NCBI GenBank assembly: GCA_008632985.1 | Contig: QPGO01000047.1 | Span: forward strand, 484,212-536,513 | From: Psammoneis japonica | Lineage: Eukaryota | Reading direction: 5' to 3' | DNA length: 52,302 nucleotides | Shown here: one piece after another, positions 8,951 through 46,090 of the stretch | How positions within the stretch are numbered: the first letter of the stretch is position 1 | Layout: each line of letters opens with the position of its first letter | Program-made: the position numbers and the translations under genes | Notes under the pieces: model-generated | What the model was told of the DNA's origin: nothing | The model's database searches: none | The model's input: only the letters and a program-made list of their open reading frames with translations

Positions 8951-9056
8951 GGCTGTTTTGCATTTTGCGTTTTTCGTCATCTCTCGACATTGTCCCCCCA
9001 ATGCTTTCGGGGTGCAACAACGATCATGACTGCAACCTTTTGGTCAAGATGCAACA

Positions 9057-22023: not shown

Positions 22024-22299
22024 TGACAGAAATCGAAGGCAAATGGCAAGAATTCAAACAACAACTCCTTGCTGCTGTCTAAATGGCAGATGAGTCTCCG
22101 CTCAGAGACCGTCACAGGAGCCGAAAGACGTGTAAGTCGGCATGATCGGGCCACTGTTGTTGTTCTTGTGAGCCTTGTGGCTCGAAAGCAAACTGCATCG
22201 CGCGCGAACGCGCGGAACTAAAGCACACAAAACTGTGCGCGGTAAACTAAACAGCGCGCGATACTTCGCGCGCATCCAAATCCTGTTCAAATCCTGTCA
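22024..22299 (-). repeat. 3' LTR (276 bp)
   Basis: TGACAG...CTGTCA; aligns without gaps to 28808-29083 with 16 differences. Confidence 0.95.
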
Positions 22300-25200: not shown

Positions 25201-27868
25201 TCTGATCCTCGAGTGTGTTGACAAACTCTTTGTCCGTCTTGGTGCCGCAGATGTCAGTGACGGTAGACTCGGTGCCAACAAACAGTTGGGTGCTGGTGCA
25301 ACCAGAGTCGACGGCCGGGGTGTCGGCATGAACGGTGTCAGTGGCGACAGGCTCGTTGCGGCGGTGCACATTAAGGGCGGGGTTGGGTGATTTGCAGGCC
25401 TTGCGAAGGTGTGCACCGGCGGGCATGCGGGCGCACTGCGTGGTGCAGTCAAAAGTACGACGGACCGCATCGGCAGGTAGGAAGCCAAAGCAAGGCCGAA
25501 GAGACTCGAAGGGGGGGTCCTTGGGCTTGACAGTGCGCTCTGGAGGTGGAACGTCATCGCCCGTGGGGTCAATCGCATGCAGATGACACTCGTAGAACAC
25601 GTCGTCGTTCGGAATGAGGTGATCATCGAGGGCGGACGCGTGATCGTCAGACAAGGAAGCGGACAAGATGGTCTCGTTGACAACGACACGGTGACGGCAG
25701 TTGCCGCATTCGTCAAATGGGTTGGCAGTGGGATCGTCCTGCAGGTCAGAGATCGCGTCGTACCACTGGTCGTCGTCAGTGACAGAGTGATCGAGTGCGG
25801 AAGGGTCCCACGTGTCATCACCGGTGAGGATGACATGGGGCAGGGTGTCCCATTCGGCGTCAGTGCAAGGTCGCATGGCAACATGAGGCAGGCCAGCCTT
25901 GATGTCAATGGGGATGACACAGCCATCAGGAGTGGCAACACGTTGCAAGCCGTTGGGCACCTTGACAGAGCGATCGTTGACATCCTGTTTGCACCATTCG
26001 AGCTGGCCGCAGGAATGGATGGTCTTGCCCTTTCCCGTGCATGCGTGCTGATGGAGGATGGCGATGACGGGACCACGCTGGGTCTCAATGACGGCACCAG
26101 CGGTGACAATGGGGATGTCCACCAATTGATGATCGTCAATGCCCTGAACGTCGACTTGGCGAGAGGTGCGTGCGATGACACGAACGTCGTCGCCAGCAAT
26201 GCCGCCGTTGGCCCCACGATCGACCAGAGCGCCAGTGCGTGTGGAGCGATGAGCAGAGGCAGAGCAAATGACATTGTGGTTGTCAACGCGGCGGCAAGTG
26301 CGGCCGTTAAGTTCCATGTTATCTGCAGAAGCTGGCGGGGTAGAGGAAGCGGCGGATGGCCCCGGTCGACTGGCATTGGGGGCTTGGTTAGGAGACAACA
26401 GACGTTGCAGATCACCGGGTGGCAGTGGCTTGCGCTTGGTGAGGTGCGCCAGGATGGGATCATCCGAAGTGGCCAAGTTGACATCACCGTCACTCCCAAG
26501 GTGTTGGTCGTGAAGGTTGGCCGCAACAGACTCATGGCAGTTGCTGGCTCGCGGGTTGCGGGGAGGCGGGCGAGAGTGCTCAAGGATGATCGCCTTGGAG
26601 GAATCGGGCAACGAATCCCAGAGCCGTTGGTGGTCGGGAGGGAGACGTCTCCATTGGACACCGGTGAGGCTGGGACCGCGGGTGTGGGCAGCATTGGCGT
26701 GAAGGACGTCAACGTCACTGTCAATGTCGCAGAACACATCGTCGGACGGTTCCTCGGAGTGGACGTCGTGTGCGTGTGTGGCGCGTCGGGGAGCTCGAGG
26801 TGTCGTCTTGGGTTGAAACGTGCTGTCGCACTGAGCTGCCGCGGAGAGGAGCAAGCCACAGTGTTGATCGTATGTGAGGCTCTTGCCACTCTGCGTACGA
26901 TGCTGATCAGCTTGGTTCTTGACAGCACGGAGTTCCTCGACAGGGTGCACGGCATTCTCGAGCATGACGCATTTCTGTCCTTCAGAGAAGTGGTCACTGG
27001 CGGGGATGAGTGCCTCGCACTTGCGCAACTGATCTTGCCAATGAAGGATGAACCCGTGGGTTGGACCTTTCCAAGTGCCATCACCAAGACGTGCGGTGGT
27101 GAGGTGCGTGAGCAGGGTGGAGGACTCGACAGATGCGCGGGTGGAGGCAAGCGCGTGCTCAGACAAGGAGCGGCAGACGGTCTGTGCGTCAGAAGACCCC
27201 ACATTTTCGCGAATGAGAGCCTTGCCCTTGTCGGTGAGAAGGATGCGTTCGAAGATGGCGAACATGCACTTTTGCTGTTCAGCAAAGAGCAGTTTGTCTT
27301 CGGGGCTGGTCGGTTTGTACGACGAGTCTAGAATGCACTCGACGTCTTGGGCACGGGCTTGTGCCACAAGTGAGGTGTGCCAAGTGTGCCACTGCTTGTC
27401 GGATTTGAGAGCCGTGAAAGCGGTGGGATCACGCTTGATGCCTCGCTTGAAGTCTCGCACCGGGTCGCGTGCCTTGGTCGGGTTGGTGACATGTGGAGGT
27501 GCAAGGGGTGAGCTGCCGATGGACACAGAGGACATGCAGTCCGGGCTGAGGCGGCAGGCAAGGAACTCGTCATGCGCGAACAAAGAGGAGTCGTTGGCAA
27601 CGTCAAGACCTTTGTGTGCTTTGACAATGTGCAGGCTGGCTAGTGCTGCTAACATGTTCTTATAACCACGGGGCAAAGGGATTGCATCAGTGCCGTTGTC
27701 GCACTCAAGCGAGTCGATTTGGGACGGTGTGAACGTGAATGGTTCCTGATGCGAGTCCGTGCCGTCTTGGGCCAAAGCCAAACGAAGAGGACTCCCAGCA
27801 CCTTGGGCAAGCACGGTTCCAACAACGTGCTCGAAACCATCGGTTTGTTGCTGACGAGTGAGAACCAT
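22247..27868 (-). CDS. Copia gag-pol polyprotein; frame open but hypermutated and probably non-functional
   Basis: Protease 'LVDRGANGG'; integrase 'VATDT...DRAQ...QNFAER'; RT 'HKARLVADG', 'KALYGLRSSG', 'VYVDDL'; RNase H 'FGDNKSVV...NPADILSK'. Many conserved Tyr are Cys/His. Confidence 0.93.
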   Translation of the reverse strand: MVLTRQQQTDGFEHVVGTVLAQGAGSPLRLALAQDGTDSHQEPFTFTPSQIDSLECDNGTDAIPLPRGYKNMLAALASLHIVKAHKGLDVANDSSLFAHDEFLACRLSPDCMSSVSIGSSPLAPPHVTNPTKARDPVRDFKRGIKRDPTAFTALKSDKQWHTWHTSLVAQARAQDVECILDSSYKPTSPEDKLLFAEQQKCMFAIFERILLTDKGKALIRENVGSSDAQTVCRSLSEHALASTRASVESSTLLTHLTTARLGDGTWKGPTHGFILHWQDQLRKCEALIPASDHFSEGQKCVMLENAVHPVEELRAVKNQADQHRTQSGKSLTYDQHCGLLLSAAAQCDSTFQPKTTPRAPRRATHAHDVHSEEPSDDVFCDIDSDVDVLHANAAHTRGPSLTGVQWRRLPPDHQRLWDSLPDSSKAIILEHSRPPPRNPRASNCHESVAANLHDQHLGSDGDVNLATSDDPILAHLTKRKPLPPGDLQRLLSPNQAPNASRPGPSAASSTPPASADNMELNGRTCRRVDNHNVICSASAHRSTRTGALVDRGANGGIAGDDVRVIARTSRQVDVQGIDDHQLVDIPIVTAGAVIETQRGPVIAILHQHACTGKGKTIHSCGQLEWCKQDVNDRSVKVPNGLQRVATPDGCVIPIDIKAGLPHVAMRPCTDAEWDTLPHVILTGDDTWDPSALDHSVTDDDQWYDAISDLQDDPTANPFDECGNCRHRVVVNETILSASLSDDHASALDDHLIPNDDVFYECHLHAIDPTGDDVPPPERTVKPKDPPFESLRPCFGFLPADAVRRTFDCTTQCARMPAGAHLRKACKSPNPALNVHRRNEPVATDTVHADTPAVDSGCTSTQLFVGTESTVTDICGTKTDKEFVNTLEDQIRERGAPSKLIGDRAQVEISNKVLGILRALFISSWQSEPHQQHQNFAERQHQTVKRMANTVMDRFGSPAHTWLLALMCVCFMLNHTASPRLHWRTPLETLTGSTPDISPLLRFHWWEPVCFHLDDSDWPSESRELRGRFVGIAEHVGHQMTFKILSDETQKILCRSNVRSAAPDPAVRNLRLDPPDGEPPEPIIKSRHDDNPVDSTDGEIRTPKMPVFDPQDIIGRTFLMQPQEDGQRHRARIVKAVEDHEWKVNGNPELTKFVCSVNNDECEEVLAHNDIMNHIEQEDEDTTIWKFRRIASHEGPLKPHDPTWKGSSYNIMLEWESGEITSEPLAIIAKDDPVTCAIYARENGLLDTDGWKRFRTVARRQKKPFRMANQAKLRSFRTAPRCKCGCEVPRNYKHAMSLDERNGNRKWGDATNLEMDQLDEYEVFHDCGPFKSSTPPAGHKKIRVHLVFDVKHDGRHKARLVADGHLTDVPVDGVYSGVVSLRGLRLMIFLAELNELETWATDIGNACLEATTKEKLYIVAGPEFGKLEGHILVIHKALYGLRSSGLRWHERFADCLRAEGFFPCRAEPDIWMRRNGDHCECIGVYVDDLAIAMKDPQSFIDTLIEKCKFKLKGTGPIEFHLGCDFSRDPDGTLCLSPRKYIERMVDSCARLFGEKPATNALSPLEKGDHPELDTSELLGPDGIHKFQSLVGSLQWAVSLGRIDITTAVMSLSSFRAAPRQGHLDRAKRVCGHLSKMRHGALRVRTEEPDCSDLPAPACEWMHSVYGEAEEMIPKDAPPPLGKFVTATHCVDANLCHCMLTGRSVMGMLHFLNKFPADWFSKKQATVETATCGSEFVAARNCVEQIVDLRITLRHLGVPIRNVSYMFGDNKSVVDSATIPHSKLHKRHTALSFHRVREAIASGYLEFHFIEGSRNPADILSKHWGYSQIWDLLRPLMFWNFIPSEIESVSVAPQANWGVTGFEQDLDAREVSRAV

Positions 27869-28792
27869 GGCAGACAAAAGTGGTGTCAGGACAATCAATT
27901 CTGGTCGGGAAGCGAAGGTGGACTCGAAACTTGGGTGAGAACAGACTTGACTTGAAACAGACTTGACTTGAAATCTTGAACTGTCTTAAAATCAGAAGTC
28001 GCCGGGCTTTGTTGTCCCGTTCGTTGTCAAGTGCTAAACTTCCCATCCGGACCGTAGAGTTGTGCCGGCACGTCCGAACCCGCAGCCAGCGGCGCTTTGG
28101 GTTGCTTGCGAGCGGAGTAGCGGGTTGTAAACCCCTGCAGGTGAGCTGACTGGAGGTGGACAAGACCCCCGAACCGTTCTCATTTTATGTCGGTTGGATT
28201 TCCCGATCAGGCTGGCCAGTTGACGCAGGCGTCAGGCGCTGTGGACGAACGAACAAACGCGGGAAAGCACCCTCGCCCCAACGCAGGCTGCAATCACGGC
28301 TGCTTGCTCTCACAGTCGTCCTCGTGGACCTAGTAGAACTGTAGAGCACCAGCAGTCCGGGGTAGATCAGGTACAATGGACTCGGTGTGCTTGTAGAGTG
28401 GCAGCAAAACCGCAGTCCGAAGAGTGGGTACAGGTTCTTGGCCGTGAAGATATGTATATATATATATGTCTTCAGCGACGAAGATCCTTGAATATGTAGG
28501 GTTCTTGACCGTTAACCGATGAATAGGTATATCAAGGGATGAGGATCAAGGATAGACTTGGATATGACCGTTGAATGTATGTCTTCAGCGATCAAAGGTA
28601 GTACAATCAATCCAGATATCCAGCGGTAAGGAGACTTGACGGTGACGTTAACTTCCTGCCGATGCCCTGGTATTGAATGCGCGTAGACTTGCCGATGTAT
28701 GTAGAATATATACGGAGGTCCACGTAGAATTGAAATAGCGTCGTTGGTAAATCAACGACGACGATGGCGGTTGCTCAATGGGTTGACAATGA

Positions 28793-28807
28793 GCAAGACT
28801 GTTAATC
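28793..28807 (-). promoter_or_regulatory. Putative primer-binding site complementary to a tRNA-Asn(GTT) anticodon arm
   Basis: The element strand reads GATTAACAGTCTTGC immediately after the 5' LTR. Its complement GCAAGA-CTGTTAA-TC has the form of an anticodon stem plus a CT-GTT-AA loop. Confidence 0.6.
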
Positions 28808-29083
28808 TGACAGAAAATGAAGGCAAATGGCAAGAATTCAAACAATAACTCCTTACTGCTGTCTAAATAGCAGATGAGTCTCCGCTCAGAGACCGTTACA
28901 GGAGCCGAAAGACGTGTGGGTCGGTATAATCGGGCTACTGTTATTATTCTTGTGAGCCTTGTGGCTCGAAAGCAAACTACATCGCGCGCGAACGCGCGGA
29001 ACTAAAGCACACAAAACTGTGCGCGGTAAACTAAACAGCGCGCGACACTTTGCGCGCATCCAAATCCTGTTCAAATCCTGTCA
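28808..29083 (-). repeat. 5' LTR (276 bp)
   Basis: TGACAG...CTGTCA; retains most TA dinucleotides lost in the 3' LTR. Confidence 0.95.
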
Positions 29084-29952
29084 CAAGCAATGAGCCCTTC
29101 TTGCATTGTCACTCTGGGCACTTGCGCTGCCCCAAGATTGATGGCATCTTGCTCACCCCAAATGTGCAGCAGCCACCAGAGCAGAGGAGCCAAGAAAAGG
29201 TGTGATGATGCCAAGCATCACATGAACCAATTTCAGAAAAAGAACTTGTGGTTGCTCTGGGTGGCCATCAGCTGGAAACCTCAACTCAGATGGCACTGAA
29301 AACAATTGCAAAGAAGTGGCAGTGGTGTTTCTGACAACACAGCATGTCTGCAAAGTGGTGGATTTGCTCGCCAACATGAACAGAGCACAAGTTGTTGCAA
29401 ACATGATGCTTGAGTGCAGTTGTTTTGTTGTGTGCTCTTTTCCACATCCCCAGCTTGATGGCTCACCTTGATGACTTCTCATGTCCACACCAGCACTTTG
29501 CCATCTTCCTTCTTTTGACATCATGGCATCTCATCATTGGTTTGTGCCACACTGATCAGCTTTTCATCATCATCCAGAGCTGCTTCATGTGAGGTTGTCA
29601 TTGCTGTCAAAGTTTTCTGACAAGTTTGCCTTGGTCCAGCTGCATTTCCAGGCTCTGGCACAATGCACTCTCCAAGAATTGCACAGGTTGGAAAGCTGCC
29701 AGGTTTGCGCACTCGCTGTTTCAATGATTTCTGCATCAAAAATGTGCAATCAACAGGTCACTGAGTGTCACATGTGGCCAACAGCTTCCCCAACAATGCC
29801 AAGCACACAATGTTGTTAGAGACACAAAAAAGGCAGTTGTGTTGGACAGCAGGTGACATTGGTGCAAAAAGACATTTGGTGCAAACAAGCAAGCAACTCT
29901 CATGGACTTCAGGAAGAACAACAACCAATTTGCAAGTCATGTTTGCCATTTC

Positions 29953-29984
<32 letters not shown>

Positions 29985-30975
29985 GACATGTGGCCAGGGT
30001 GCTGGTGCCTTTTTGCACAGTGGATTGACAGAACATGCAGCTGAGATTGCAAAATTCCCCTGCATGTCTCTGGGCATGGCTTGGTCAATGAGAAACAATG
30101 CCAAAAGGTGGCAGGAGTGGTGCCATGGAAGGTGTTGCAAACAGAAAATGCTTTTTTGCACTTGTCTTCACATGCGCATGTTTTCTCTTTTTCTGGAACT
30201 CCAGCACCGGGCAGACAAATTCTCGCTAAGATGAAAACTCACAAGATGAGGTGTTGCACATTTGAAGCCATTGCAACACCATCATCCAAGATGTGCATTT
30301 TCATCCCAGGTGAGAAACTTTTGGACAAATCACGAGGTTTTTTGCGCGCTTCTGTGCAGCACACACACATGCCCAGAGAACAAAATGCCAGCTGCGCAGG
30401 TGGCCAGCACAGTTGAGTTGTCCATGAATCAATGAAAGAAGAACAAGCACAGCCAACATTTGCAAAAATTGTGAATCAGCAGAAACTGCCTTCACAAATG
30501 TGAAAATTGCAGCCATTGTTCATTGTTCTTCTTGCCAAGTGCAGAAACATGTTGCAGACACAGCCAACACCATGCTGTCAACGAGGCTCGCAAAGTTGCA
30601 GAGTGTGCATTTGCACTGCACCTCTCCAGCTTTTGCCAAATGAGCCCAGAGGCAGGCCAGTGCACCTTTGCCACTTTGGCCAAGAAATCTCGCTCACGTG
30701 CTCGCCCTCTTGCAAAAACCTCTGGCAGCAGGCAGTGTCTTTTGATGTGCGGCGCTGAGGCAAACATTTGTCAATGCAGGTGCAGGGGTGCTGGGTGGCA
30801 CCCAGAGAGATGTTTTTGGTCTGGACCCATGCTGGCCAGTCGAAGAACCAAACAGAGAACACAACGGCTCCAAATGATGCACACCCACAACTTCTTCTGT
30901 GACTCTCCAACAATTCTTTCCTCCCTTGCCTTCCATCTCTTCTCTGGCTTTTGTGACCTTTCGCCACTGATGGAT
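29084..30975. repeat. Degenerate TpA-depleted block with (GTT)n microsatellite at ~29953-29985
   Basis: TA is nearly absent (seen at about 29817 and 30227). Overlapping Cys/His-rich ORFs have no recognisable domain. Confidence 0.7.
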
Positions 30976-31089
30976 CAAGTTACCTCGACATGCACCACCG
31001 CGTAACAAACAAAAGAAAAGAACCCACAAAAAATGCCTCTGTCTCTCAAACAAAGCATGGCAAAAGAAAATAGAACGTCCAAGCGTGTG

Positions 31090-31146
31090 CACCCGATGTG
31101 GGGATCGAACCCACGACCACACGGTTAAAAGCCGGGCGCTCTACCA
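31090..31146 (-). tRNA. tRNA-Lys(TTT), 5'-truncated/interrupted in the D-loop
   Basis: Minus strand TGGTAGAGCG-CCCGG-CTTTTAA-CCGTG-TGGTC-GTGGG-TTCGATC-CCCAC-ATCGGGT-G gives the D-arm 3' half, TTT anticodon, T arm and 3' acceptor strand. T-runs lie ~20 nt downstream. The first ~16 nt are missing. Confidence 0.88.
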
Positions 31147-32825
31147 TTTCCCGGCTATGGGTTGGACATTCGCCAGGTTAATCTTTGAGTATTTAATCGC
31201 TGCAATGCAGTGCGCGCCGAGGAGCTCCTGTCGACATTATTAGCAGAAATGGCATGTGCATTCCTGCTTAACATGTTTTTAGTGTGTATCTGCATGAAAC
31301 AGAGAATATTTTTGTCTGTGTATCATTATTGTCCCTGCGTTAGGTGTGTATCAGTGACGGCTCTCGCTGCCCAATCGATAGCTATCGTCTGTCTTTGTAC
31401 GTCATAACGTCTGTTCGTCGTTCTCTGTTCTGTCTCGCGCGAAAACCTGCGCAGGCAATCAGCGCAGCACCGTGCACCGGCGCTCATCATTCCTTCATTG
31501 AACGATCACACGATGAGCAACCCGTTTGACGTGTGCGGCCTGTGGAATAATCACCGCCCTTCTACAGTTTGAATCATCCCAAGAGATGTCTGGTGTCAAT
31601 TTCAAGAAGGGACAACCCGAGTCTTGCGTCAATAAGAATCGTGGAGTGGGAGTGGTCGTCTGATCCCGTGCTGAAGAACACCTGCAGCGCCAACCTCACA
31701 CCTCCGCGACCCGTTGTAGGACTTGTAAGTTTTGTTTGTTCATTCGATAAGACTTGTTGATTGTCGTGTGTTTTTGTATTTCACCTCATTTCATCGGCAA
31801 CCCATGACTTCTCTCGCTTCATTCTTTTGTTCTTGGGAAGAGCATGTGACACGTGATATCGTACGAGAAAGAAGAGTGCTGTATCGTTTGCTGTTGTGTG
31901 GGTGAAAAGTGCCTTGTATTTTCTGTTTGTTTTGGTCGATTGGTACTGTTGATTGTCATGCATTTTGTTTCGCCTTTTTCCATTGGCAACTGATGATTTT
32001 TTTGGCTTCATGCTGTTGTTTTTAGGGAGCATTTACACTGTTTTGCTGTTGCAGGTACTCATAATACCTATTGATAGTTGTGTATTTTGTTTCGTCTTAT
32101 TCCGTTGGTAACTGATGAATTCTTTTGCTTCATTCTTTTGAATTAGAGAGCACCTGCACGCACTGTCTTGCTGCTACCGGTGCTATACTAATTAGAGCGT
32201 GGTATCGTTTGTTGTTGTTTGGGTGAAAAGTGCCTTTTACAGTTTGTTTGTTGATGGTATTCGACCTATTGATTGTTGTGTATTTTGTTTTGTGTTTTTC
32301 CATCGGTTAACTTGTGACTTTCGCTTCATTCTTTTGAATTAGAGAGCACCTGCACGCACTGTGTTGCTGCTACAGGTAACAATAAGAACGCCGTATCGTT
32401 TGCTGATGCGGGTAATAATCACGATCAACCAATCTGTGAGATCATCTCAAGGTAGCATGGGAGGTAAGGTGTGATACAAAAATGTATATTCTGTATGTTT
32501 TTTCCTTTTTGATTCATGTCTCTTTCTCTCGTTCTGCCTGCCTACAGCACATAGGTACTGCATGGTTTCTACCAGGTAAATCATTAGTTTACACAACTAC
32601 AGTAAACCATGGTGTGCCCGGTCGATTGCACACGCTACTATATTCTTGGTATCTCATACATCGGTATACAAAACAGCAAATGTGAAAGTGTCCGCCGAAC
32701 ACTACACAATTGCCATACCAATCCGTTTCTCTCTTGCTCATCTTTGCGAGAAGCTGTACTCCTTATATACTCACAGTCGTGAAGCCTACCCAAAGGCCTC
32801 GTCCGGTCGACGTCATCATCTACCT

Positions 32826-34445
32826 CTACCAGGCAAAGTCTTCAAAGTCAGAGTCTTCATCATCCGAGTCTGCTTCGAGGTCATGGTCGTCTTTGTCTGA
32901 GTCTGCTTCCAGGTCGTGGTCATCTGAATGCACGGTGTGCAACGAAGCGTCATCCGAAGCGTCGTCCGAGTATGTGTCTGCTAACTCATTGGAGTCAGCA
33001 GCTACCTCATCATCAATCCACTGACCATAAAATGTTGGTTTCCCACGACTTCGAGGACCCAATGCATTGTTATCACTCGTAGGGGGCATGACCAACGCCA
33101 CGGCCTCTTCCTCGGCGTCGCTCTCTGCAGGTTCGACAGAAGTTGCACCGGTAAGATTCGTCAAGCGTGATGCATTACTCTCACTCGCATCCAACTCAAC
33201 GGCCTCTTCCTCGGCGTCGCTCTTTGTACGTTCGACGGTATCGACTGAAACAGCACCCGTAGGATTCGTCAAGCCTGATTCTGGCGGATCCTTCCTATTT
33301 GCACCGGCAGCCTTCGTCGCGTTGGATTTCGGGTATTCCTTCCTAGACGTGTCGGTAACCTTCTTTTTCTTGGGTTTGGGAGGATCCTTCCTACAGGCAG
33401 ATGCTACCGATACCGCAGCCTTCCTCTTGGTTGATTTCCCACCGGCAGACGCCACTAATACTGCAGCCTTCCTCTTGGTTGATGATTCGGGAGGATCCTT
33501 CCTAGTAGAAACGGGAGGAGTGTCGTAATTGGCAACAAGGCCGTGAGTAATGGAGAGTGCAAGTGCCATTTTCTTTTGAGTGTTCGCTTCCAATTCAGCT
33601 CGGGCTTTTGCGGCTGCTACACGCTCCTTGTCAGAGACCTGGTACTTTTCACGAATAGTCCACATGGACTGACTTTTTTCAACCTTGATCAAGTACTTTT
33701 CTGCCGTTGCAATGTACTGATACTTCAAATACTTGATTTTCTTGTCAACCTTGGTGAACGTCACTTCCACCGTGGTGATGTTTTCCTTTTCCCGAAGAAG
33801 CAGAATATCGAACAAGGCAACAACGTCGTTCCAGTAGATGTGCGTTTTGCCGCACTGACGAATGTAGCAAAGAAGAGCCCGTCCACACAACTCGTTGAAC
33901 CAACCGTCGTATTTATCATTTTTTCTTCGGATTTCTCGATTTTCTTTGGTTGACTTTTTGAAAACTCCGCGGCTCTGCCGGTCCTGCTCTTCAGCGGCCC
34001 TTTTCTTCTTCATTGCCGATCGAAGATCATCGTCAGCGGTAAGTCTTTCTTGTTGAAGATCCTCGTGACGCCTTCGCTTGACGCGATCCTGTTTCCGAAC
34101 GAAATCGCGACCGTGTATCGCCAAGTCTCTCTCACGCGCTTCCTTCACGTATCCACGATGATATTCGGCCCGCTTTTTTAGGATATCGAGGCGTTCCTGC
34201 TGCTCATCGGAAAGGCTACTCAGACTGCCAAGGTAAGCCACCTCGCGTCGCTCCATTTTGCGATGGCATCGCTGGCAAACGAAATAGCCAGCACAACCGT
34301 GGCCGCCGCCTATCCTTGACCCTACACAAACCATGGTCCGAGAATCACTGTCCGCTTCATTTTCGTCGTCAGCCGTCAAAGAGCAGTCTTGCGCGGGAAT
34401 GTCAGCAATGGCGGGGGACCGGGGCAGCTCCACCGAAGACTCCAA
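32826..34445 (-). CDS. Element protein, C-terminal part: Cys cluster, charged helical region, RKDPP repeats, acidic tail
   Basis: 539-codon frame starting at TTG and overlapping the upstream ORF by 70 nt; 'CVGSRIGGGHGCAGYFVCQRCH'. The C-terminus is duplicated at 40162-40875. Confidence 0.65.
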   Translation of the reverse strand: MESSVELPRSPAIADIPAQDCSLTADDENEADSDSRTMVCVGSRIGGGHGCAGYFVCQRCHRKMERREVAYLGSLSSLSDEQQERLDILKKRAEYHRGYVKEARERDLAIHGRDFVRKQDRVKRRRHEDLQQERLTADDDLRSAMKKKRAAEEQDRQSRGVFKKSTKENREIRRKNDKYDGWFNELCGRALLCYIRQCGKTHIYWNDVVALFDILLLREKENITTVEVTFTKVDKKIKYLKYQYIATAEKYLIKVEKSQSMWTIREKYQVSDKERVAAAKARAELEANTQKKMALALSITHGLVANYDTPPVSTRKDPPESSTKRKAAVLVASAGGKSTKRKAAVSVASACRKDPPKPKKKKVTDTSRKEYPKSNATKAAGANRKDPPESGLTNPTGAVSVDTVERTKSDAEEEAVELDASESNASRLTNLTGATSVEPAESDAEEEAVALVMPPTSDNNALGPRSRGKPTFYGQWIDDEVAADSNELADTYSDDASDDASLHTVHSDDHDLEADSDKDDHDLEADSDDEDSDFEDFAW

Positions 34446-36199
34446 GGTGAGATTGGATCAGAGTTGCTATCCGTCGTTAGCTTGAGGTCATGAGCTTCCA
34501 ATAGTTTGCAAAAGTTCCCTTCGGATAGGGACATGCCAAACCACAAGGCATCGTAGCAATTGAGGTTCAATTGTTTCGATACCGCCATGACGCCGTTGTC
34601 ATTGCTGGTTTGAGCAATGAAGTATCCTTTGGGCAGGGCAAGGCGGCGACCCTTGTTGAAGGACTCCTCTTTGTACTTGTCAGAGTCTTGCTTACTACAA
34701 CTCATCAGGAATGACTGGAGTATCTTGTGTTGATTCTGTACGTTTTCCGCCGAGACGATTCCTGACGCCAACAATAATTCCAAAAACGTTCGATACGCCT
34801 TGATGGAACTAAAACGATGTTGTTGCGACTTCTCTTCGGCAAAAGCGACAAAGAACGATGACGTGATGATGATGCGATGTTTAGTCGATCGAGAACGGAC
34901 AAGACTCAGTGCACGGTCGGGCAAGATGTCAATACTCCCGTCCATGTCGACTGTCTCTTGGAACCAGTTACCATGCTCTTTCTCCAAAGCGTCAACAGTA
35001 TTCCGCTCAATAACAATGACATTGTTGGTCGGCATTGACTTCAGAAGCCGTTGCAGGACGTCACGTGCACCTTTTGCAAGTGATTCCGTAGTGGGAGGCA
35101 CGTAATGACTCTTGTTTGCCCCCTGTAACTTCATCATGACGTTTCTAATGACCTGTTTGTTTTCATTTGTCATGGGCTTGGCCAAAGACTTTTCTAACTC
35201 GACAATTACTTCTTGCAATTGGAGCTCGCGCGGACTCGTCTTGATGGAGTCTTCGAAACCGCCGTAGTAATGTTCCCCAACAGACTCCATGGCTCGATTG
35301 TTCTTTACGAAGCCCCCCTTGGGTGGTACTGGCGAGAGCATGCGCTGAAGGAACTCGTTGGTCACGGCCATTTCTTGTAATCGGTACGGAAGTGTTGGCC
35401 AAGAAAACTGAAAGAATATCCCATTTGGTGGAACGAGCGTATCAATCATGAATGCCTTGGCATCGTCGTCGATAGGAGTCGGTGCGAGGGTATCCAGGAC
35501 TTTTGACGATGGCAAAGCGACAAGCCTCTCTCCGACGGGGCCCCATTCGCATTCGAATAGTGATGACGCTACTGCTTCCGCCACCTGCATCATGATGAGG
35601 TCGTCAATCTCCTGTTGATGATCTGGATGCACGGCAAGGCCATCCAGTTCCAGAGCTTTGATATCGGTAAGAAGTTGCTTGGGAAGGAGCTCGTAAATCC
35701 GTTCTTGATCTAAAAGGCGTGCGGCGAATTGAATGTTTGTTTGTTGTTCGATGCGCGTGCGGCAATGGAATGACATTCCAATCTTGATTTTCCCATCGGC
35801 TCGGACAATTATGTAGATGCCCATCTCATCATCTGACAAGGTTACTGGCTGCCACCATTTCTCATGAAGCTTTCCCTTGTTGTTCTCGTATTCTTGTAGG
35901 ATGTGTTGTGTCAAGAGTTGCTTGAGTCGCTCGATTTTGTCAGTCGTGACAAGTGTCGATCCATCGCTACCTACGGCAACACGGGCCGCAAGTTGAAGTC
36001 GCTTTGACAGATTTTCAATGGCATCGTTCGGCTCCTCAACGGCCTTGGGAGTCTTGAGAGAGCATGGATTGCCTTCCCATTCGATCACTGGTTTCTTCTT
36101 TACCATCTTGAAGTTGGCAACAGCGGCGAGAGTGCACGGCGCAATGAAGGTACGGTGCAGAGCGTACGGTACGGAGCGTGCAGTATTGTCAATCTGCAT
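34376..36199 (-). CDS. Element protein with GIY-YIG/T5orf172-like nuclease motif
   Basis: 607-aa ORF; 'GIYIIVRADGKIKIGMSFHCRTRIEQQ' fits the GIY-x-(Y/K)IG-x-S...R pattern. Confidence 0.6.
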   Translation of the reverse strand: MQIDNTARSVPYALHRTFIAPCTLAAVANFKMVKKKPVIEWEGNPCSLKTPKAVEEPNDAIENLSKRLQLAARVAVGSDGSTLVTTDKIERLKQLLTQHILQEYENNKGKLHEKWWQPVTLSDDEMGIYIIVRADGKIKIGMSFHCRTRIEQQTNIQFAARLLDQERIYELLPKQLLTDIKALELDGLAVHPDHQQEIDDLIMMQVAEAVASSLFECEWGPVGERLVALPSSKVLDTLAPTPIDDDAKAFMIDTLVPPNGIFFQFSWPTLPYRLQEMAVTNEFLQRMLSPVPPKGGFVKNNRAMESVGEHYYGGFEDSIKTSPRELQLQEVIVELEKSLAKPMTNENKQVIRNVMMKLQGANKSHYVPPTTESLAKGARDVLQRLLKSMPTNNVIVIERNTVDALEKEHGNWFQETVDMDGSIDILPDRALSLVRSRSTKHRIIITSSFFVAFAEEKSQQHRFSSIKAYRTFLELLLASGIVSAENVQNQHKILQSFLMSCSKQDSDKYKEESFNKGRRLALPKGYFIAQTSNDNGVMAVSKQLNLNCYDALWFGMSLSEGNFCKLLEAHDLKLTTDSNSDPISPWSLRWSCPGPPPLLTFPRKTAL

Positions 36200-38553
36200 C
36201 GATGCGAAGAACTCGACAAAGCAGTTAGACGAAATATGACAACAATGATCGGTACATGTAGCGTCATGGTGCTTTGCTTACCTTTTTATGATTGTGGTGA
36301 TGGCCGCGGCAAACAAAAAGTTACGAGCCAAAAGTAAAGGAGCAACAGCCGTCTGAAACTTGGTGTACGGAGTCGTAACGGCTCTCCACAAAAGAGAGTA
36401 ACGAGTCGATTCAACCTGCGGAAAGCAGATAGAAGCACGGCATGGTTGTTAGTGATGTTCCACGAGAAGTCACGGTACGACGATTACGGCATGGTCGGCT
36501 TTCCTGTCAATGTGGTTTGCTGTGGCGGACGCCAATGTGCACGGGCAAATGGCGACAGCGATAATAGGAATGGAGACAAGAGAAAGAAGCATGATGATAT
36601 TGATTTTGTACGGCAGCAAGCACGTGATGGAAGTACGCATCAATCAAGATCGAACTGTGCAACGAACCAAAAACGCAACAAGAACGGTAAGCGACGACGC
36701 TACAACATACGATGTGTGTTGCGATACACGTCAACAGCATGTCTCTTGAGTGGCGAACGGACGAGCGTCATCGTTGATGCGTCATGGTGCTTTGCATTGC
36801 TTACTTCGTACCTCGTTGATTGATTGTGGCGAGTGTGCGAAAAAAATGCCAGAACGGTGACCGCGCTGAGGTGCGCCAGCCGTAGATTTCTACACAACCG
36901 TACTAAAAAAATTTTCCCGCCAAAGGAGGGATGCTGGGATGAGGCCCAACGGTCCAAAACCCCCATTTTTTACCAAAATGAGTTTCTACTAGCTAGCCGA
37001 CTACTCTAACATCATACTATGTAATACTGGAATCCCGGCTATGGGTTGGACATTCGACGAGTGAATCTTTGAGTATTTATAGGCTGCAATTTTCCGAGCC
37101 AGTGAGGAGCTCTTGACTAAGGAACGGCACTGTTGAAACGATTGGTAGAAAATCTAACTATATTTCACCGTGCGCGTTGTTGTGTATAGTTGTGTGCTGG
37201 AATTGCAGTTTGGACTCGCCATTGCACACCTGCTGCCAGAGCACTCAACTTCTATCTCGGTACCTCATCCGGTTGACGGACTGACGCTCGCCCGGTGCGA
37301 ACTCCGCCGTTAAAGTATATAAATTTATTCATTTTGAATATGTATTTCTAAAGCAAGAGACCGGACACGAGACTTCCAGTCTCCTCATTTTTTCAAGGGT
37401 TCGCGCATCATTCATAAAGGCACCACACACCATGATAATCGGAGCGGCTTATTAGACTATTGACGATCCTTTCAACAATACCAACGCTATCTACTAGTCT
37501 TTACCTTCATCTATAAACAGCTTATGTTGCTTTTTCGAAGGTAAGCAGCCAATAGTAAGGTGAAAAAAGGATTTTGTATTGACACCACGTTTAGACTCAT
37601 TATCGCTTTCTGTCGCAATCGAATTATATTGCGGTTTTTGTTTCGGCATCTCACTCATTTTCTTTGACATGTTCGTCTTTATAACTCATATAGAGAAGAT
37701 CTTGAGCAATGTATCACCCCTACGGACGAACAATGGCTCATAGTTTCTTGTCGGTGTCGACACCATTTTTTCTTTTCAACTCATGTTCTTCCTTATATCG
37801 GAATGGGACTGTGGTGTGTCCTACGCTCTCTTTTGGCCTGAGCCAAGAAAGATACAGTTGATACTATCACGAATAATGACAATTATAATGTGCAATGGGT
37901 TGGATATTGACGTCCATGACCTTGCCGAGTGCCGGTTAGTAGTACTCCCTCGTTCAGGGACCGAAAACTGGGGTAAATCTTGGTGGCGTGGAGACTCTGC
38001 TATTGGAATGCGAGCGAGCGGGCTGGAATCTCGTGCAGTTTACTTCTGAAGGATGTGTACAATAAGGTATGTTTACATTTAAAGCAGTATTGATGCATCA
38101 TGCATACAGTACTGGTATAAGGATTTACAAACTGACAATTTCATTCTCCGTCTCCATTTTTCCCATGTAGGCGGTGTCTTAATTTTGTTTCTTGCGGCCT
38201 TTCGGATCTACAAAGGAGGACGGGAACGACTTGTACCTTATCAATCTAGGGTTGTCGTCATTAGGTCCATAATTTGTGGTGACGAGGTGTCTGTTAGTTG
38301 CAGGAACTAAGACGCACCTCACGGAGTGCCGGTACCCCAAGACGCACCTCAAGACGACGCACCACCATGTGTGCATTATTTTATGTTTCTTGTTGCCTTT
38401 CAATCTGCAAAGGAGGTCTGAGACACGACCTGAATAATTTTGGATCGTTGTTGGGAACGACTTGTACCTTACCAATCTAGGGTTGTCGTCAGAAGACCGT
38501 ATACTTTGTGGTGACGAGGTGTCAACGAGTTTTGCAAACTTAAGACATACAGT

Positions 38554-38901
38554 ACAGTGCCTCAAGAAATACAGTACCTCAAGACACCATCACGGAACAC
38601 GGTACATTATACCTCAAGTTCGTCTCATTTCTTGTCAAGTGGTGCATGACTGTCCTCTCTGTACTGCAGTAAGGTTGCGGTGTGCGCTGGATGAGTTGAG
38701 ACAGTGCCTCAAGAAATACAGTACCTCAAGACACCATCACGGAACACAGTACATTATACCTCAAGTTCGTCTCATTTCTTGTCAAGTGGTGCATGACTGT
38801 CCTCTCTGTACTGCAGTAAGGTTGCGGTGTGCGCTGGATGAGTTGAGACAGTGCCTCAAGAAATACAGTACCTCAAGACACCAGCACGGAACACGGTACA
38901 T
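38554..38901. repeat. 147-bp tandem repeat, ~2.4 near-identical copies
   Basis: ACAGTGCCTCAAGAAATACAGTACC starts at 38554, 38701 and 38848. Confidence 0.92.
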
Positions 38902-39069
38902 CATGTACGGTATCCATGCACATGATCGGCATACTTTCTTATAGGCTTGAGTGCCTTTTCAAGTGGAAGTCTTTACTGTAAGTAACCCAAACCCCATCAA
39001 ATGGATAGGGCAATCTGGAGCAGAGAGCGCTTTAGAGAAACCAACTGAGAGTGATCAAACAGAACGTGT

Positions 39070-39798
39070 TTATAAGTTACTTGTGACCTCGACGCTTGAC
39101 TTTTTGACTTGAGCTCTGAGATTCTGTCGGAATGCAACGTCTGACGAGCCTTTTGCATAATGCCCTGTGTTGTCCTCTTTGTACTTGTCTGTAACAGCCC
39201 CGAATCTTGCGTGAGCTGTCTTCGAAATAAGCTGCTTGTATACTTTGAGCTTGTCGTCCGTCGTAATTGAGTTGTCACTCTCGAAGCACTTGAGAAAAGC
39301 TTTCTCCAAATCCTTGTTCCCCATTATACTCTCATATGCTTCCTTGACACATTCTTTTCCCTTGCTTCTCATAGTTCCTCCGTTGCACCCCAATCGGATA
39401 CAACCCAACAACCTCTTCCCGAAGTGGAATACTATCGGTGCCACCAAGGTAAGTCCGCCTCTGTTTCGAATCTTGTCAGAAGTAGCGTAGCAGTTAGCCA
39501 TGTAGTTCTCATCTTTGAGTGCCTCGTGGTGCAAAATTCTCATCCGTTTCAGGAAATCGATTTTGGCTTGGGTCTTGTCGCTAACTTCCTCCGAGAGTTC
39601 GTCATTGTTCAGATGAATCGTCTTTTGCAGTACGTCTTTAATTGCCCAGCCAAAGATTCGATTGACTTCGGAATTCGCATCATCTACCGACACATCAATG
39701 CCAGTAGACTTCCTCTTGCGTGTTGATGCACCCCCCGCCTTCTTGACAAGCTCATGATGAACTTTGTCCATAGCCGAAAGGACCCAACCAACAAACAT
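39070..39798 (-). CDS. Hypothetical element protein (fragment) with NRGGL motif
   Basis: 242-aa ORF with protein-like composition. 'IFGWAI...NRGGLTLV...KTAHARF...FRQNLR' recalls RGGL-containing C-terminal regions of transposon-associated proteins. Confidence 0.5.
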   Translation of the reverse strand: MFVGWVLSAMDKVHHELVKKAGGASTRKRKSTGIDVSVDDANSEVNRIFGWAIKDVLQKTIHLNNDELSEEVSDKTQAKIDFLKRMRILHHEALKDENYMANCYATSDKIRNRGGLTLVAPIVFHFGKRLLGCIRLGCNGGTMRSKGKECVKEAYESIMGNKDLEKAFLKCFESDNSITTDDKLKVYKQLISKTAHARFGAVTDKYKEDNTGHYAKGSSDVAFRQNLRAQVKKSSVEVTSNL

Positions 39799-40161
39799 CT
39801 CACCTATCGTCGATTCGAGCGTGAATGGTCTTGGTAACCAACTCCTTCAGTATTGAGGCAGTCTTCTTCTCATTTACTTCTCCGGTGAGTCTATGAAACA
39901 TCTCAGTCCATGAGATCATCTCAAAGTACCTACTGTATATTCAGCATATATTGTATCAATTATTCCTCGTCTCTTTTCTCTCGTTCTGCCTGCAGCACGA
40001 CGTACTGCACTGTTCCTAAATCATGAGTTTACACAACCTACAGTAAACTTATTCTTGGTATCTCGTACATCGGTACAAACAACAGCGAAAGCAAAAGTCC
40101 ACCGTACGCCAAGTACTTGCCGCACCACTCTGTTTCTCCCGGTCGACATCATCATCTACCT

Positions 40162-40875
40162 CTACCAGGCAAAGTCTTCAAATTCAGAGTCTTCATCATC
40201 TGAGTCTGCTTCCAGGTCATGGTCGTCTGAGTCTGAGTCTGCTTCCAGGTCGTGGTCATCTGAATGCACGGTGTGCAACGAAGCGTCATCCGAAGCGTCG
40301 TCCGAGTATGTGTCTGCCAACTCATTGGAGTCAGCGGCTGCCTCCTCATCAATCCACTGACCGTAAAATATTGGTTTCCCACGACTTCGAGGACCTAATG
40401 CATTGTTATCAGTCGTAGGAGGGCTTGCCATTTCAACGGCCTCTTCCTCGGCGTCGCTCTCTGCAGGTTCGACGGTATCAACTGAAGCAGTACTGGTACC
40501 GGTAGGATTCGCCAAGCGTGATGCTTTGCTCTCACTGGGAGCCCATGTAATAACCTCTTCCTCGGGTTTCTCGCTCTTTGTAGGTTTGACAGTATCAACG
40601 GAAGATGCACCGGTAGGCTTCGTCAAGACTGATTCTGGCGGATCCTTCCTACTAGTAGGAACAGTAACCATCGTCGCGATCGATTTTGGGTACCGGTATT
40701 CCTTTCTAGACGTATCGGCCACCTTCTTTTTCTTTGGAGGATCCTTCCTACCGGCAGATGCTACCGATACCGCAGCCTTCCTCTTGGTTGATTTCCCACC
40801 GGCAGGCGCCACCAATACTGCAGCCTTCCTCTTGGTTGATTATTCGGGAGGATCCTTCCTAGTAGAAACGGGAGG
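40162..40875 (-). pseudogene. 5'-truncated paralog of the 32826-34445 ORF
   Basis: Same 'RKAAVSVASA...RKDPP...GPRSRGKP.FYGQWID...DFAW*' sequence. The frame is preserved across indels. Confidence 0.75.
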
Positions 40876-41161
40876 CCGCGAACGCACTGTTACGTTTGAC
40901 ACAGAAGTGAACGATGATGATGCGCAATTAGAGGAGTCAACCACTCACCCCATGGAGCGAAAACGTAGTGGACGAAAAAAGCGACTGACGAGCCTGACAT
41001 GGTGGAGCCATAAGCTTCTTCCTCAGGGACTTGATGAGGCTGATTCGAAGAAGAAAAGAAAGCTGAAAAAGTTGAGGACAGTGGACTACGCAGCCGCCAT
41101 CATTTTCTTTGTCACTTATTCCATATTCCTCGTTGTCATGTTTATACTGGCCCATACATAA
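40876..41161 (+). pseudogene. Orphan 3' end of a membrane protein gene, possibly the M4 helix of a pentameric ligand-gated ion channel
   Basis: Charged loop, then 'LRTVDYAAAIIFFVTYSIFLVVMFILAHT*'. The 5' part is replaced by element 2 sequence. Confidence 0.4.
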
Positions 41162-41282: not shown

Positions 41283-41891
41283 CTAGAGTTCCCCACATTG
41301 CACAATCCGAATAGGTATTCGTGGCCTATTGTTTTGCCCCGATACAGGAACTGCTTCACATTTGCGTACGGTCAACATGCTCGGTCCGTCTAACACCCTT
41401 CCAAACACAACATGCTTGCCATCAAGCCAACTGGTTTTAGCTGTTGTGATAAAAAATTGGCAGCCATTTGTATTTGGCCCGCTGTTCGCCATGGAAAGGG
41501 TACCGGGTTGATCATGATGGTGAATGAAATTCTCGTCTTCAAACGATGATCCACCATTGTATATGCTTGTCTTTCCTGTGCCGTCGTGGTTGATAAAGTC
41601 GCCGCCTTGTAACATGAAGTCTTTGATTACACGGTGAAAGGTTGAATTCAAATAACCGGTAGGCTGAGAGTTCTGTAGGTATTCGCCGGTGCAGAATTGT
41701 CGGAAATTTTCGCAAGTCTTGGGGCACTCTTTGACAAAGAGCTCTAGTTTGATGCGACCCAACTCCGCTGTAGAATCTTTCCCCTCCCCAAGAACCACAT
41801 CGAGAAATACAACGGCATTACCGCGCTCAATCGCTTCCATCACGGCGGGATCCGGTCCGTGAGTTGTGGTGGTTGTCGTCTCCGTTGCCAT
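41283..41891 (-). CDS. PPIH: Cyclophilin-type peptidyl-prolyl isomerase, PPIH-like (spliceosomal cyclophilin H)
   Basis: '[14 protein letters not shown]', '[15 protein letters not shown]', '[16 protein letters not shown]', '[10 protein letters not shown]', ending 'QCGEL'. An alternative ATG is at 41909. Confidence 0.9.
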
Positions 41892-42813
41892 GGTGGACGG
41901 ACGGTGCATTTTGCGTCGTTCGTCGTTCGCGATGACATGAAAGATTCGATTCGCGCAACCGCGCAGATACGTCCGTCCATGGCACGATTTTTAATTTTTC
42001 GTTTTTGGGTTGATTTTTTGCGATTTCGACTTCCGACCATCGACCTCTCCAAGACCTCTCTCACACTCCAACTCCTCTCGCCCATCGACCATATAGGCAC
42101 ATCTTTCAATATTTGGATGCAACCACAGCTTACCTGATGCGAATAAGTCCCTAACAATGAGTTTGTTGAAGCTGACTCAGTCATCTCGTTTCGTCGTTTT
42201 GTTCTTTGCGGGCTGCTTCTGTGCAAACAAAAATGAGGCGGTAACAGGTTGTCAAACTAATGAGAAAAGCAGCTTTGTTCATCCATTTTATCAACCAAGA
42301 GTTCAATGTCTCAATGCTATCGGTGTAAGACTGCAATCCTGGGCCGTCTAGAGCAATTGTGGTCACTACCTGTCATGGCTGTGCATTCGAAATGTGTCCG
42401 TCACTGTCGCCGACCTTTTATTGCCCGAAATGAGTTGGATCCTGCCGACTTAGCTGTGGACAAGAATATCTACCATAAGCTTTTGCGGGGGTCGATACGC
42501 AAACGCATTAGATGCGAATCACTCCTTGCCGTGAATGTCTTCTGTTATTGCCTTCGATGGCAACCACTGCTCGAGATTACTCAACAGTACTATTCAAGAA
42601 GAGGACGTGTTGCATTGTCGCTGACTGGTCCGTCGTTGGAACGTGCTTCCGATACTTGGCTGCGATGACATCCCTGATTTGTGAGCTTGGCAATTTCACC
42701 ACTTTCCTCGTCAAGCAATGGCCATGTCATTTCATTCTGGAAAAGGATCCTATCGTAGAAGGCCGCGGTGCCCGGTTGCGATCTAACTGCTGATGCTGTG
42801 ATACTATGCGAGA

Positions 42814-45223: not shown

Positions 45224-46090
45224 NNNNNNNNNNNNNNNNNNNNNNNNNNNNNNNNNNNNNNNNNNNNNNNNNNNNNNNNNNNNNNNNNNNNNNNNNNNNN
45301 NNNNNNNNNNNNNNNNNNNNNNNNNNNNNNNNNNNNNNNNNNNNNNNNNNNNNNNNNNNNNNNNNNNNNNNNNNNNNNNNNNNNNNNNNNNNNNNNNNNN
45401 NNNNNNNNNNNNNNNNNNNNNNNNNNNNNNNNNNNNNNNNNNNNNNNNNNNNNNNNNNNNNNNNNNNNNNNNNNNNNNNNNNNNNNNNNNNNNNNNNNNN
45501 NNNNNNNNNNNNNNNNNNNNNNNNNNNNNNNNNNNNNNNNNNNNNNNNNNNNNNNNNNNNNNNNNNNNNNNNNNNNNNNNNNNNNNNNNNNNNNNNNNNN
45601 NNNNNNNNNNNNNNNNNNNNNNNNNNNNNNNNNNNNNNNNNNNNNNNNNNNNNNNNNNNNNNNNNNNNNNNNNNNNNNNNNNNNNNNNNNNNNNNNNNNN
45701 NNNNNNNNNNNNNNNNNNNNNNNNNNNNNNNNNNNNNNNNNNNNNNNNNNNNNNNNNNNNNNNNNNNNNNNNNNNNNNNNNNNNNNNNNNNNNNNNNNNN
45801 NNNNNNNNNNNNNNNNNNNNNNNNNNNNNNNNNNNNNNNNNNNNNNNNNNNNNNNNNNNNNNNNNNNNNNNNNNNNNNNNNNNNNNNNNNNNNNNNNNNN
45901 NNNNNNNNNNNNNNNNNNNNNNNNNNNNNNNNNNNNNNNNNNNNNNNNNNNNNNNNNNNNNNNNNNNNNNNNNNNNNNNNNNNNNNNNNNNNNNNNNNNN
46001 NNNNNNNNNNNNNNNNNNNNNNNNNNNNNNNNNNNNNNNNNNNNNNNNNNNNNNNNNNNNNNNNNNNNNNNNNNNNNNNNNNNNNNNNNN
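45224..46090. other. Assembly gap (N run)
   Basis: 867 N. Confidence 1.

Follow-up and report, generated by a model that had tools for sequence, protein, structure and literature searches.

Few eukaryotic elements insert inside small-RNA genes, the cases being Dada and some lineages without long terminal repeats (non-LTR), and to our knowledge all of those described use either a DDE transposase or a reverse transcriptase (RT). Dada transposons, in the account of Kojima and Jurka (2013, PMC3706591), insert inside genes for transfer RNA (tRNA) or small nuclear RNA (snRNA) by means of a DDE transposase and with target-site duplications (TSDs) of 6–7 bp, such as the GCGTTCA flanking the tRNA-Leu copies; their hosts as given there are fish and a number of invertebrates, namely water flea, oyster and polychaete worm. 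A comparable arrangement is found in a stretch of 52,302 nt of contig QPGO01000047.1 of Psammoneis japonica (hereafter the window, to which all positions refer), where unit A (approximately 31149–36930) is joined at its 3′ end to a broken tRNA-Lys gene. As in the Dada elements described in that paper, the unit appears to lie within a small-RNA gene, lacks terminal inverted repeats (TIRs) and shares a short sub-terminal repeat with the gene concerned; copies with the target tRNA at one end only are likewise reported there. Unlike in Dada, neither a DDE transposase (DxxH) nor a TSD of 6–7 bp was found here, and the break lies in the D-loop. Dada is closest in behaviour but is excluded, because no DDE transposase was found. 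Unit A may be a copy of a new multi-copy, selfish and probably mobile family, an interpretation that we advance with reserve. Relatives are so far known only from unnamed eukaryote-like sequences.

The 3′ two-thirds of a tRNA-Lys(UUU) gene occupy 31089–31146 on the minus strand, by direct reading and by ARAGORN. Read from 31146 down to 31089, the sequence begins with TGGTAGAGC (D-loop GG) and the 3′ strand of the D-stem, continues into an anticodon arm with UUU and a single C·T mispair, and ends with a variable loop of 5 nt, then a perfect T-arm (GTGGG TTCGATC CCCAC), the acceptor 3′ strand ATCGGGT and the discriminator base; the B box and T-arm are intact. Positions 1 to approximately 13–16 are missing, and with them the 5′ strands of acceptor stem and D-stem and the initial half of the A box. 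The break falls within the A box, with the D-stem 5′ strand on one side and the D-loop GG on the other. CCA is not encoded at the 3′ end, and two T4 runs, the expected terminator of RNA polymerase III in this position, lie 19–27 nt beyond it (31062–31070, minus strand); together these features indicate a resident genomic gene rather than a retro-copy of a mature tRNA. A contig of the DNA run described below that covers the flank stops at 31123, inside the tRNA, as expected if the tRNA body, the variant base of the C·T mispair included, is common to other loci; the mispair may thus belong to the gene family rather than reflect damage.

Only one tRNA was found by ARAGORN in the 52,302 bases, a tRNA-Lys(UUU) at 31089–31163 on the minus strand, and its cloverleaf closes only with bases of the adjoining repeat, the acceptor 5′ strand AACCCAT forming 5 of 7 pairs (2 mismatches) and the D-stem 2–3 bp. 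At the gathering score, Rfam gave no match for either the tRNA region or the terminal block described below. At E≤10 over 30800–37400, RF00005 was not among the 4 matches listed, of which the best in the tRNA clan was a partial tmRNA match of 15 bits over the T-arm region, compared with a tRNA gathering score of 29, a lower-scoring, overlapping match of that clan standing outside the listing; with the same tool, a control tRNA-Ile from the metagenome locus L001 (see below) scored 61 bits. The segment 31089–31163 does not form a full cloverleaf that passes the tRNA covariance model with both A and B boxes intact, and the tRNA-Lys gene is most likely dead. Two motif searches of the window for the 5′ piece yielded 5 matches against 11.3 expected and 15 against 10.6 expected, i.e. 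chance level. A permuted or split tRNA gene was rejected, as there is no 5′ piece downstream of the 3′ part. Decay of a homologous 5′ part was also rejected: it would set 58 canonical nt on the 3′ side against several indels and substitutions across 17 nt on the 5′ side, an implausibly uneven decay. Fifty-eight canonical bases followed by none rule out simple decay and indicate a junction.

At most 3 nt from this break begins a terminal block (copy A, 31149–31206) that recurs at 37033–37090 (copy B), where the flank on the low-coordinate side is not tRNA-like. The two copies align without gaps over 58 nt at 88% identity, gapped likeness extending to about 31232 and 37125, and an exact 23-mer occurs twice, at 31150 and 37034, and in none of 100 shuffles. 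No mismatch falls in the first 24–25 nt, the 7 that exist being situated deeper inside. On the tRNA side the boundary is sharp, likeness ending at the same base in both copies, and such a shared end-point in two diverged copies points to the end of a repeated unit. Since the identity of the blocks (88%) is close to that of the other homology between units A and B (86%; see below), the blocks fit two diverged family members and not a duplication generated by the insertion of unit A itself. Neither TIRs nor LTRs were reported for the interval (0 inverted pairs). The terminal CCCGGCT (31150–31156) is an inverted copy of AGCCGGG (31130–31136) in the tRNA and includes the C of the anticodon-stem mispair. 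Comparable 7-nt inverted repeats straddle 1.4% of window positions, and the junction hairpin is of ordinary stability (z −0.80; 43 of 200 shuffles fold as well). An earlier note, made from the letters of this DNA alone, had placed the break just 5′ of TGGTAGAGC in the D-loop and A box, had seen the terminus recur at 37034 and the inverted copy take in the mispaired base, and had found neither a TIR or LTR nor the 5′ tRNA piece in the window; all of this was borne out.

The hexamer AAATGG, considered as a possible TSD, is present at the 3′ junction and once more at about 36963, in the spacer between the two units, an event with a chance of about 4% within approximately 150 nt by our own estimate, and one that conflicts with the 5′ limit placed by read depth (see below). 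The 23-mer has no match in prokaryote genome contigs and none in viral contigs. Other identities considered for the block were rejected. It is not a small RNA gene by Rfam, and it does not behave as the core promoter of the plus-strand RNA described below, the cover of which begins in the bin 31408–31634, with none beside copy B. Although the block begins with TC on the plus strand, as Helitron 5′ ends do, a Helitron was dismissed on account of the lack of any Rep/helicase family by Pfam, the preceding base (T in copy A, A in copy B) and the lack of a G+C-rich hairpin before 37032. Helitrons insert between A and T, and their 3′ ends read CTRR, with a hairpin.

Unit A contains a protein-coding gene on the minus strand (32826–36106, from open reading frames (ORFs), the family profile and contigs). 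It is read as two frames, 36277–34376 and 34457–32826, that overlap by 82 nt and are offset by one base; ORF1 runs from a methionine codon at 36106 to 34376 and ORF2 from 34457 to 32826. One more G in the G5 run at 34413–34417 merges them into an uninterrupted frame of 1,093 codons, with MVKKK at its start (36106). Contigs from three sequencing runs of one sample were aligned to 30500–37300 at a likeness of at least 80%; run X1 behaves as a DNA assembly, and run X2, the record of which reads ‘DNA?’, we take to be RNA. Among the contigs listed, the extra G (after 34412) is present in three from X1 and one from X2, and the window copy is therefore either frameshifted or mis-assembled at this homopolymer.

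Searched with HMMER, ORF1 finds 200 cluster representatives at E≤1e-3, 119 of them at or below 1e-10 and 42 at or below 1e-30. The best relative shares 39% identity over about 470 residues, and many relatives are 800–1,200 aa long. The family alignment runs on into ORF2, which a profile of 37 members matches at E 2.5e-37 while matching nothing else in the window. The names of ten relatives are uninformative without exception (two ‘hypothetical protein’, eight unnamed). A word-index protein search gave no matches to ORF1, and a protein atlas gave only weak leads, the best at 0.82 and clusters of GIY-YIG/T5orf172 at 0.80. No relatives were found in viral contigs or in prokaryote genome contigs, and a viral structure library returned nothing at E≤0.001. 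In the diatom literature searched, no paper was found on tRNA-linked or GIY-YIG elements of such a family. Pfam, PHROGs and NCBIfam assign no family to the window copy. Among the 37 members, Pfam detects an HA domain in 3 and a C-terminal GCR1_C domain in 2, the window copy being without a GCR1_C match. By Pfam, over window ORFs and 37 members, there is no transposase, DDE, RT, integrase or Rep family, and no transposase, integrase, RT or recombinase fold occurs among the listed matches of fold searches, which cover residues 1–633, the C-terminal 460 residues lying outside the models. These data support a real, multi-copy protein gene outside the known transposon superfamilies.

The protein comprises a GIY-YIG-like N-terminal domain (approximately residues 150–255 in stop-to-stop numbering), an alpha/beta domain (282–508), a helical region, a cluster of CxxC motifs, a conserved C-terminal domain and an acidic/basic low-complexity tail. 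AlphaFold models of residues 1–633 and 60–285 have pLDDT values of 87.1 and 93.8 and pTM values of 0.83 and 0.88, respectively. In the model, the N-terminal domain appears to follow the order strand-strand-helix-strand-helix, as in GIY-YIG nucleases. GIY at 153–155 and KIG at 165–167 form part of a motif GIY-x9-KIG-x7-R...E, in which Y155, K165, G167, R175 and E250, which we take to be the catalytic set of GIY-YIG nucleases, are invariant or nearly so in 37–43 sequences. The N-terminal domain is probably a GIY-YIG nuclease. The central domain is modelled as a three-layer alpha/beta fold; uracil-DNA glycosylase (UDG) was considered as its specific identity and set aside, many unrelated alpha/beta folds matching equally.

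Multiple diverged copies of this gene are evident in the DNA run. X1 contributes 293 pieces over the 6.8 kb aligned, 79 of them at 99% identity or above, 49 at 95–99%, 65 at 90–95% and 100 below 90%. Their summed depth is 330–540 across the gene versus 136 for the single flank contig (30500–31123), i.e. 2–4 times the flank, which suggests, as a rough estimate, several to a dozen or more diverged copies in the genome. Depth is also raised at 31181–31634, and among the contigs listed three diverge at 31472, suggesting that the 3′ terminal 320 nt or so are common to a few copies. At the other end, X1 depth drops from 542 (36629–36855) to 225 (36856–37082) and one X2 contig ends at 36927, from which the 5′ limit of unit A is placed at about 36.90–36.93 kb. 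Contigs of X2 lie over 31408–36927 and point to a putative antisense RNA on the plus strand. They skip 31725–32025, 32053–32144, 32462–32545, 34038–34180 and 35666–35898, none of which is skipped by X1, and all five gaps are bounded by GTAAG...YAG (GT..AG) on the plus strand. The joined X2 contig of 2,156 nt has no plus-strand frame longer than 161 aa. The X2 contigs therefore look like a spliced non-coding RNA, antisense to the protein gene and presumably spanning nearly the whole unit.

Between the terminal block and the coding region, unit A has a non-coding 3′ region (31207–32825, minus strand; delimited by repeats and read depth) with internal repeats of 120–320 nt at 31731–32408. Upstream of the gene lies a 5′ region (36107–36930, minus strand; limit placed by depth) that contains one copy of CGTAGAAATCTACG (36880–36893), followed by a spacer of about 100 nt (36931–37032) that separates the 5′ limit of unit A from block B and in which alignment shows tRNA likeness at chance level. 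Unit B (37033–40875) consists of block B, a variable part unrelated to unit A (37091–39933, minus strand) and a stretch homologous to unit A (39934–40875, minus strand). Apart from the block, the homology between the two units amounts to about 1–1.1 kb, 40139–40875 matching 32803–33518 at 86%, with a weaker extension from 39934 that corresponds to 32483–32731. This stretch takes in the protein's low-complexity tail together with roughly the first 340 nt past the stop codon, and because it ends inside the coding region, at 40875, unit B is without the whole of the conserved protein. Comparison of the two units thus reveals a common layout, with a shared stretch of about 1 kb, a variable region that measures 1.3 kb in A and 2.8 kb in B, and the terminal block, and the order is head to tail: B, A, tRNA remnant. 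The variable part of unit B contains an open frame of 258 aa (39070–39846), for which Pfam gave no family and the word-index search and the protein atlas no homologue, and a 147-nt tandem repeat (38554–38901; 2.4 copies, 98% alike). The X2 contig of highest depth (1,219) falls at 40162–41161, where it represents the unit-B version of the shared 1-kb stretch together with B-specific sequence; the plus strand here has a 264-aa frame with a hydrophobic end.

Given the junction-type break of the tRNA gene and the end-point shared by two diverged copies, unit A is read as a member of a selfish, probably mobile family. Under this interpretation, the unit would encode a single minus-strand protein of about 1,093 aa, made up of a GIY-YIG-type domain, an alpha/beta domain, a Cys cluster and a conserved C-terminal domain, and would terminate, beyond the 3′ end of the gene, in a conserved block some 58–110 nt long, joined in unit A to the D-loop of tRNA-Lys(UUU). 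This join would have cut the tRNA off from its first 13–16 bases and half of its A box. Unit B would be an older, 5′-truncated relative lying head to tail upstream of A. As the homology of B ends inside the coding region, a single deletion on its far side could account both for the truncation of B and for the loss of the 5′ tRNA piece. The domain type and the truncated neighbour suggest a mechanism in which the encoded nuclease would make the break and the unit would then be copied in by repair, the junction at the 3′ terminal block being precise and the other ragged, giving rise to truncated copies.

Several observations weigh against this interpretation. Neither a TSD nor a terminal repeat nor an empty site came to light, and the 5′ limit of the unit is a guess from read depth. 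The sequence common to units A and B is limited to about 1.1 kb, and two blocks would equally arise if a host gene family had been duplicated locally; likewise, the copies in the DNA run could represent a dispersed gene family and not transposed copies. Nuclease identity has no profile support from Pfam (including GIY-YIG and T5orf172, over 37 members), PHROGs, NCBIfam or a PDB profile search of the family, in which the best match, to low-complexity sequence, had E 0.026. The central domain fits many unrelated alpha/beta folds equally. The arrangement at L001, the sole locus of a relative in metagenome contigs, differs from that of the window, since its tRNA is intact and its gene divergent.

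Free-standing GIY-YIG homing endonuclease genes include the I-TevI/Seg type of phage T4 and the mobile endonuclease ORFs of mitochondria. With these the unit would share the character of a selfish gene with a GIY-YIG-type product, spreading by break and repair without terminal repeats or TSDs, and sharp junctions within a host gene, the end of which such genes sometimes substitute. It differs in being nuclear and in encoding a protein of about 1,093 aa with three more conserved domains, and its homing, cleavage and target are putative. Cryptons combine a tyrosine recombinase with a GCR1_C domain. A GCR1_C domain in 2 of the 37 members and the lack of terminal repeats recall them, but membership was rejected, as there is no tyrosine-recombinase domain by Pfam or among the listed fold matches and the window copy is without GCR1_C. 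Integration of bacterial islands and prophages at tRNA genes likewise leaves a partial tRNA beside a direct repeat and allows serial occupation of a site. These systems use tyrosine or serine recombinases, of which none was detected here by Pfam or among the listed fold matches; the tRNA is affected in its 5′ part and not at its 3′ end, and the rebuilt gene fails the tRNA model.

Among Penelope-like elements (PLEs), the Naiad and Chlamys groups described by Craig et al. (2021, PMC8557442) carry an N-terminal GIY-YIG endonuclease. Resemblance to PLEs as presented in that paper extends from the N-terminal GIY-YIG-type domain to frequent 5′ truncation, relatives sharing the 3′ end only, and a truncated copy placed head to tail immediately upstream of a full one. 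PLE membership was nevertheless rejected: no RVT family was found in the 37 members and no RT among the listed fold matches, although the same tool found RVT_2 of the Copia element in the window at 1.3e-27. Unlike in a partial-tandem insertion of PLE type, units A and B are too diverged (86–88%, with mostly unrelated sequence). If mobile, the family would be a transposon type not yet classified; should its N-terminal domain prove an active GIY-YIG nuclease, it would represent a nuclear counterpart of the homing endonuclease genes of phages and organelles and possibly a site-specific DNA cutter. On a more modest reading, a name and an anatomy are provided for about 200 clusters of ‘hypothetical protein’.

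The earlier note had gone further and proposed a tRNA-targeting element, possibly of a new type, in which it saw no DDE transposase. The repeated unit and its gene of no known transposon superfamily uphold part of this, and the transposase is missing both by Pfam and among the listed fold-search matches; the profile searches of ORFs that the note had called for, made here on window ORFs and 37 relatives, detected no DDE, RT, integrase or Rep family. Targeting itself was not supported, one of two termini being flanked by a tRNA: the note had held that random flanks at other copies of the terminus would make the tRNA break a one-off, and the sole other terminus inspected (37033) adjoins sequence that is not tRNA-like. 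That this flank of block B is a decayed tRNA-Lys was rejected (its alignment score of 16 compares with a mean of 16.3 for shuffles, P = 0.60, and is reached by 54% of window segments). The best other tRNA-like match, at 42.9 kb, scores 32, the maximum expected of about 2,700 comparisons by our own estimate.

It seems unlikely to us that the family is site-specific for tRNA-Lys genes, cutting just 5′ of TGGTAGAGC, and that unit A made a serial entry between an older unit B and the tRNA remnant. If mainly the 3′ part of the tRNA were recognised, a new copy could re-enter and a head-to-tail array would result, and such re-insertion at a retained half-site would produce the observed order B, A, tRNA; the junction also coincides, to within 3 nt, with a conserved feature of the tRNA. 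The inverted repeat of 7 nt that links terminus and anticodon stem, of a kind met at only 1.4% of positions, recalls the sub-terminal repeats of Dada as given in PMC3706591, whereas the hairpin it forms is of ordinary stability. That only one of the two termini abuts a tRNA speaks against targeting, as do the approximately 100 nt of non-tRNA sequence between block B and the 5′ limit of unit A and the failure to find the 5′ tRNA piece anywhere in the window.

Evidence from L001 cuts both ways. Its gene, 27% identical and cut by the contig end after 355 residues, starts about 850 bp from an intact tRNA-Ile(AAU) (61 bits), downstream of which, at 8760–9049 of that locus, lie two tRNA-like 5′ fragments with D-arm and anticodon arm and without T-arms, one of them with a GAU anticodon; the tRNA-Ile and both fragments are all within 1.2 kb of the gene start. 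Proximity to a tRNA gene and to tRNA fragments would fit targeting, but the tRNA concerned is a different one, intact and in opposite orientation. In its fullest form the idea is that diatom-like eukaryotes carry nuclear DNA elements of a new superfamily, driven by a GIY-YIG-type nuclease without RT or classical transposase and homing into the D-loop of tRNA-Lys genes, for which the retained 3′ two-thirds would serve as recognition or homology arm, with one precise and one ragged junction and a head-to-tail pile-up. This we consider distinctly unlikely as a whole.

Alternatively, nothing here is mobile: units A and B would be tandem duplicates of a lineage-specific host gene family, the block a conserved 3′ regulatory piece, and the tRNA would have been truncated by an unrelated deletion or end-joining event. 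The two units are indeed adjacent and in the same orientation, no TIRs, TSD or known transposase were found, both loci lie under X2 contigs, so that the region appears expressed, and other repeats are nested in it, including the Copia element 2 kb away. Yet the duplicated segment must then end exactly at the base where the tRNA breaks. The many diverged copies in the DNA run, together with some 200 clusters elsewhere of widely varying length, are also hard to reconcile with this explanation, as is the state of the two copies, one frameshifted and the other truncated. On balance we regard it as improbable, in preference retaining a selfish, probably mobile family for unit A.

A third explanation involves recombination. 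On entry, islands of bacteria and mobile endonuclease ORFs of mitochondria rebuild the host gene, and the two blocks could by analogy be direct repeats resembling attachment sites on either side of unit A (31207–37032), the block next to the tRNA standing in for its 5′ end and thereby allowing a hybrid tRNA-Lys (31163–31089) to survive. ARAGORN accepts this hybrid, with 5 of 7 acceptor pairs in the right spacing (chance about 0.013 per register by our own binomial estimate), but 5 of 7 becomes borderline once several registers are allowed, the D-stem has just 2–3 pairs, and the Rfam matches listed include no tRNA, the best in the clan being the tmRNA match of 15 bits against a gathering score of 29. 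The block end reads TAGC at the position of the A-box start, and its first 24–25 nt are identical between copies with 7 mismatches further in, as in a crossover core; nor would a missing 5′ piece be required at the far end of unit A. Both blocks, however, carry the same non-canonical 5′ mimic, which leaves the original 5′ part of the tRNA still unaccounted for, and no recombinase was detected as a family (Pfam) or as a fold (among the listed matches). This makes it very unlikely.

The remainder of the window is eukaryotic, with a Copia element, a DENN-domain gene, a cyclophilin gene (41283–41990, minus strand) and further host-like frames. The Copia-type LTR retrotransposon lies at 22023–29084, its far end 2 kb from the tRNA remnant, and has LTRs of 278 nt (22023–22300 and 28807–29084, 94% alike) and a single minus-strand frame of 1,912 aa that contains the RVT_2 match mentioned above (Pfam); its G+C content of 55–58% compares with about 47% in the surroundings. 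A run of 867 N at 45224–46090 is either an assembly gap or a masked stretch and explains why the 44–46 kb bin is low in G+C and has many spurious open frames. Adjoining the Copia LTR, the region 20777–22023 includes an array with 8-nt periodicity (21381–21763), flanked by direct repeats of 283 nt (20777–21059 and 21741–22023, 95% alike). The palindrome CGTAGAAnTCTACG is present at five sites (9138–9153, 9388–9403, 19417–19430, 19677–19690 and 36880–36893), with 7 strand-wise matches against 0.01 expected, and is absent from L001. Four of these sites form two pairs spaced 250–260 nt apart within two repeats of about 370 nt, and the fifth is the CGTAGAAATCTACG copy near the presumed 5′ limit of unit A.

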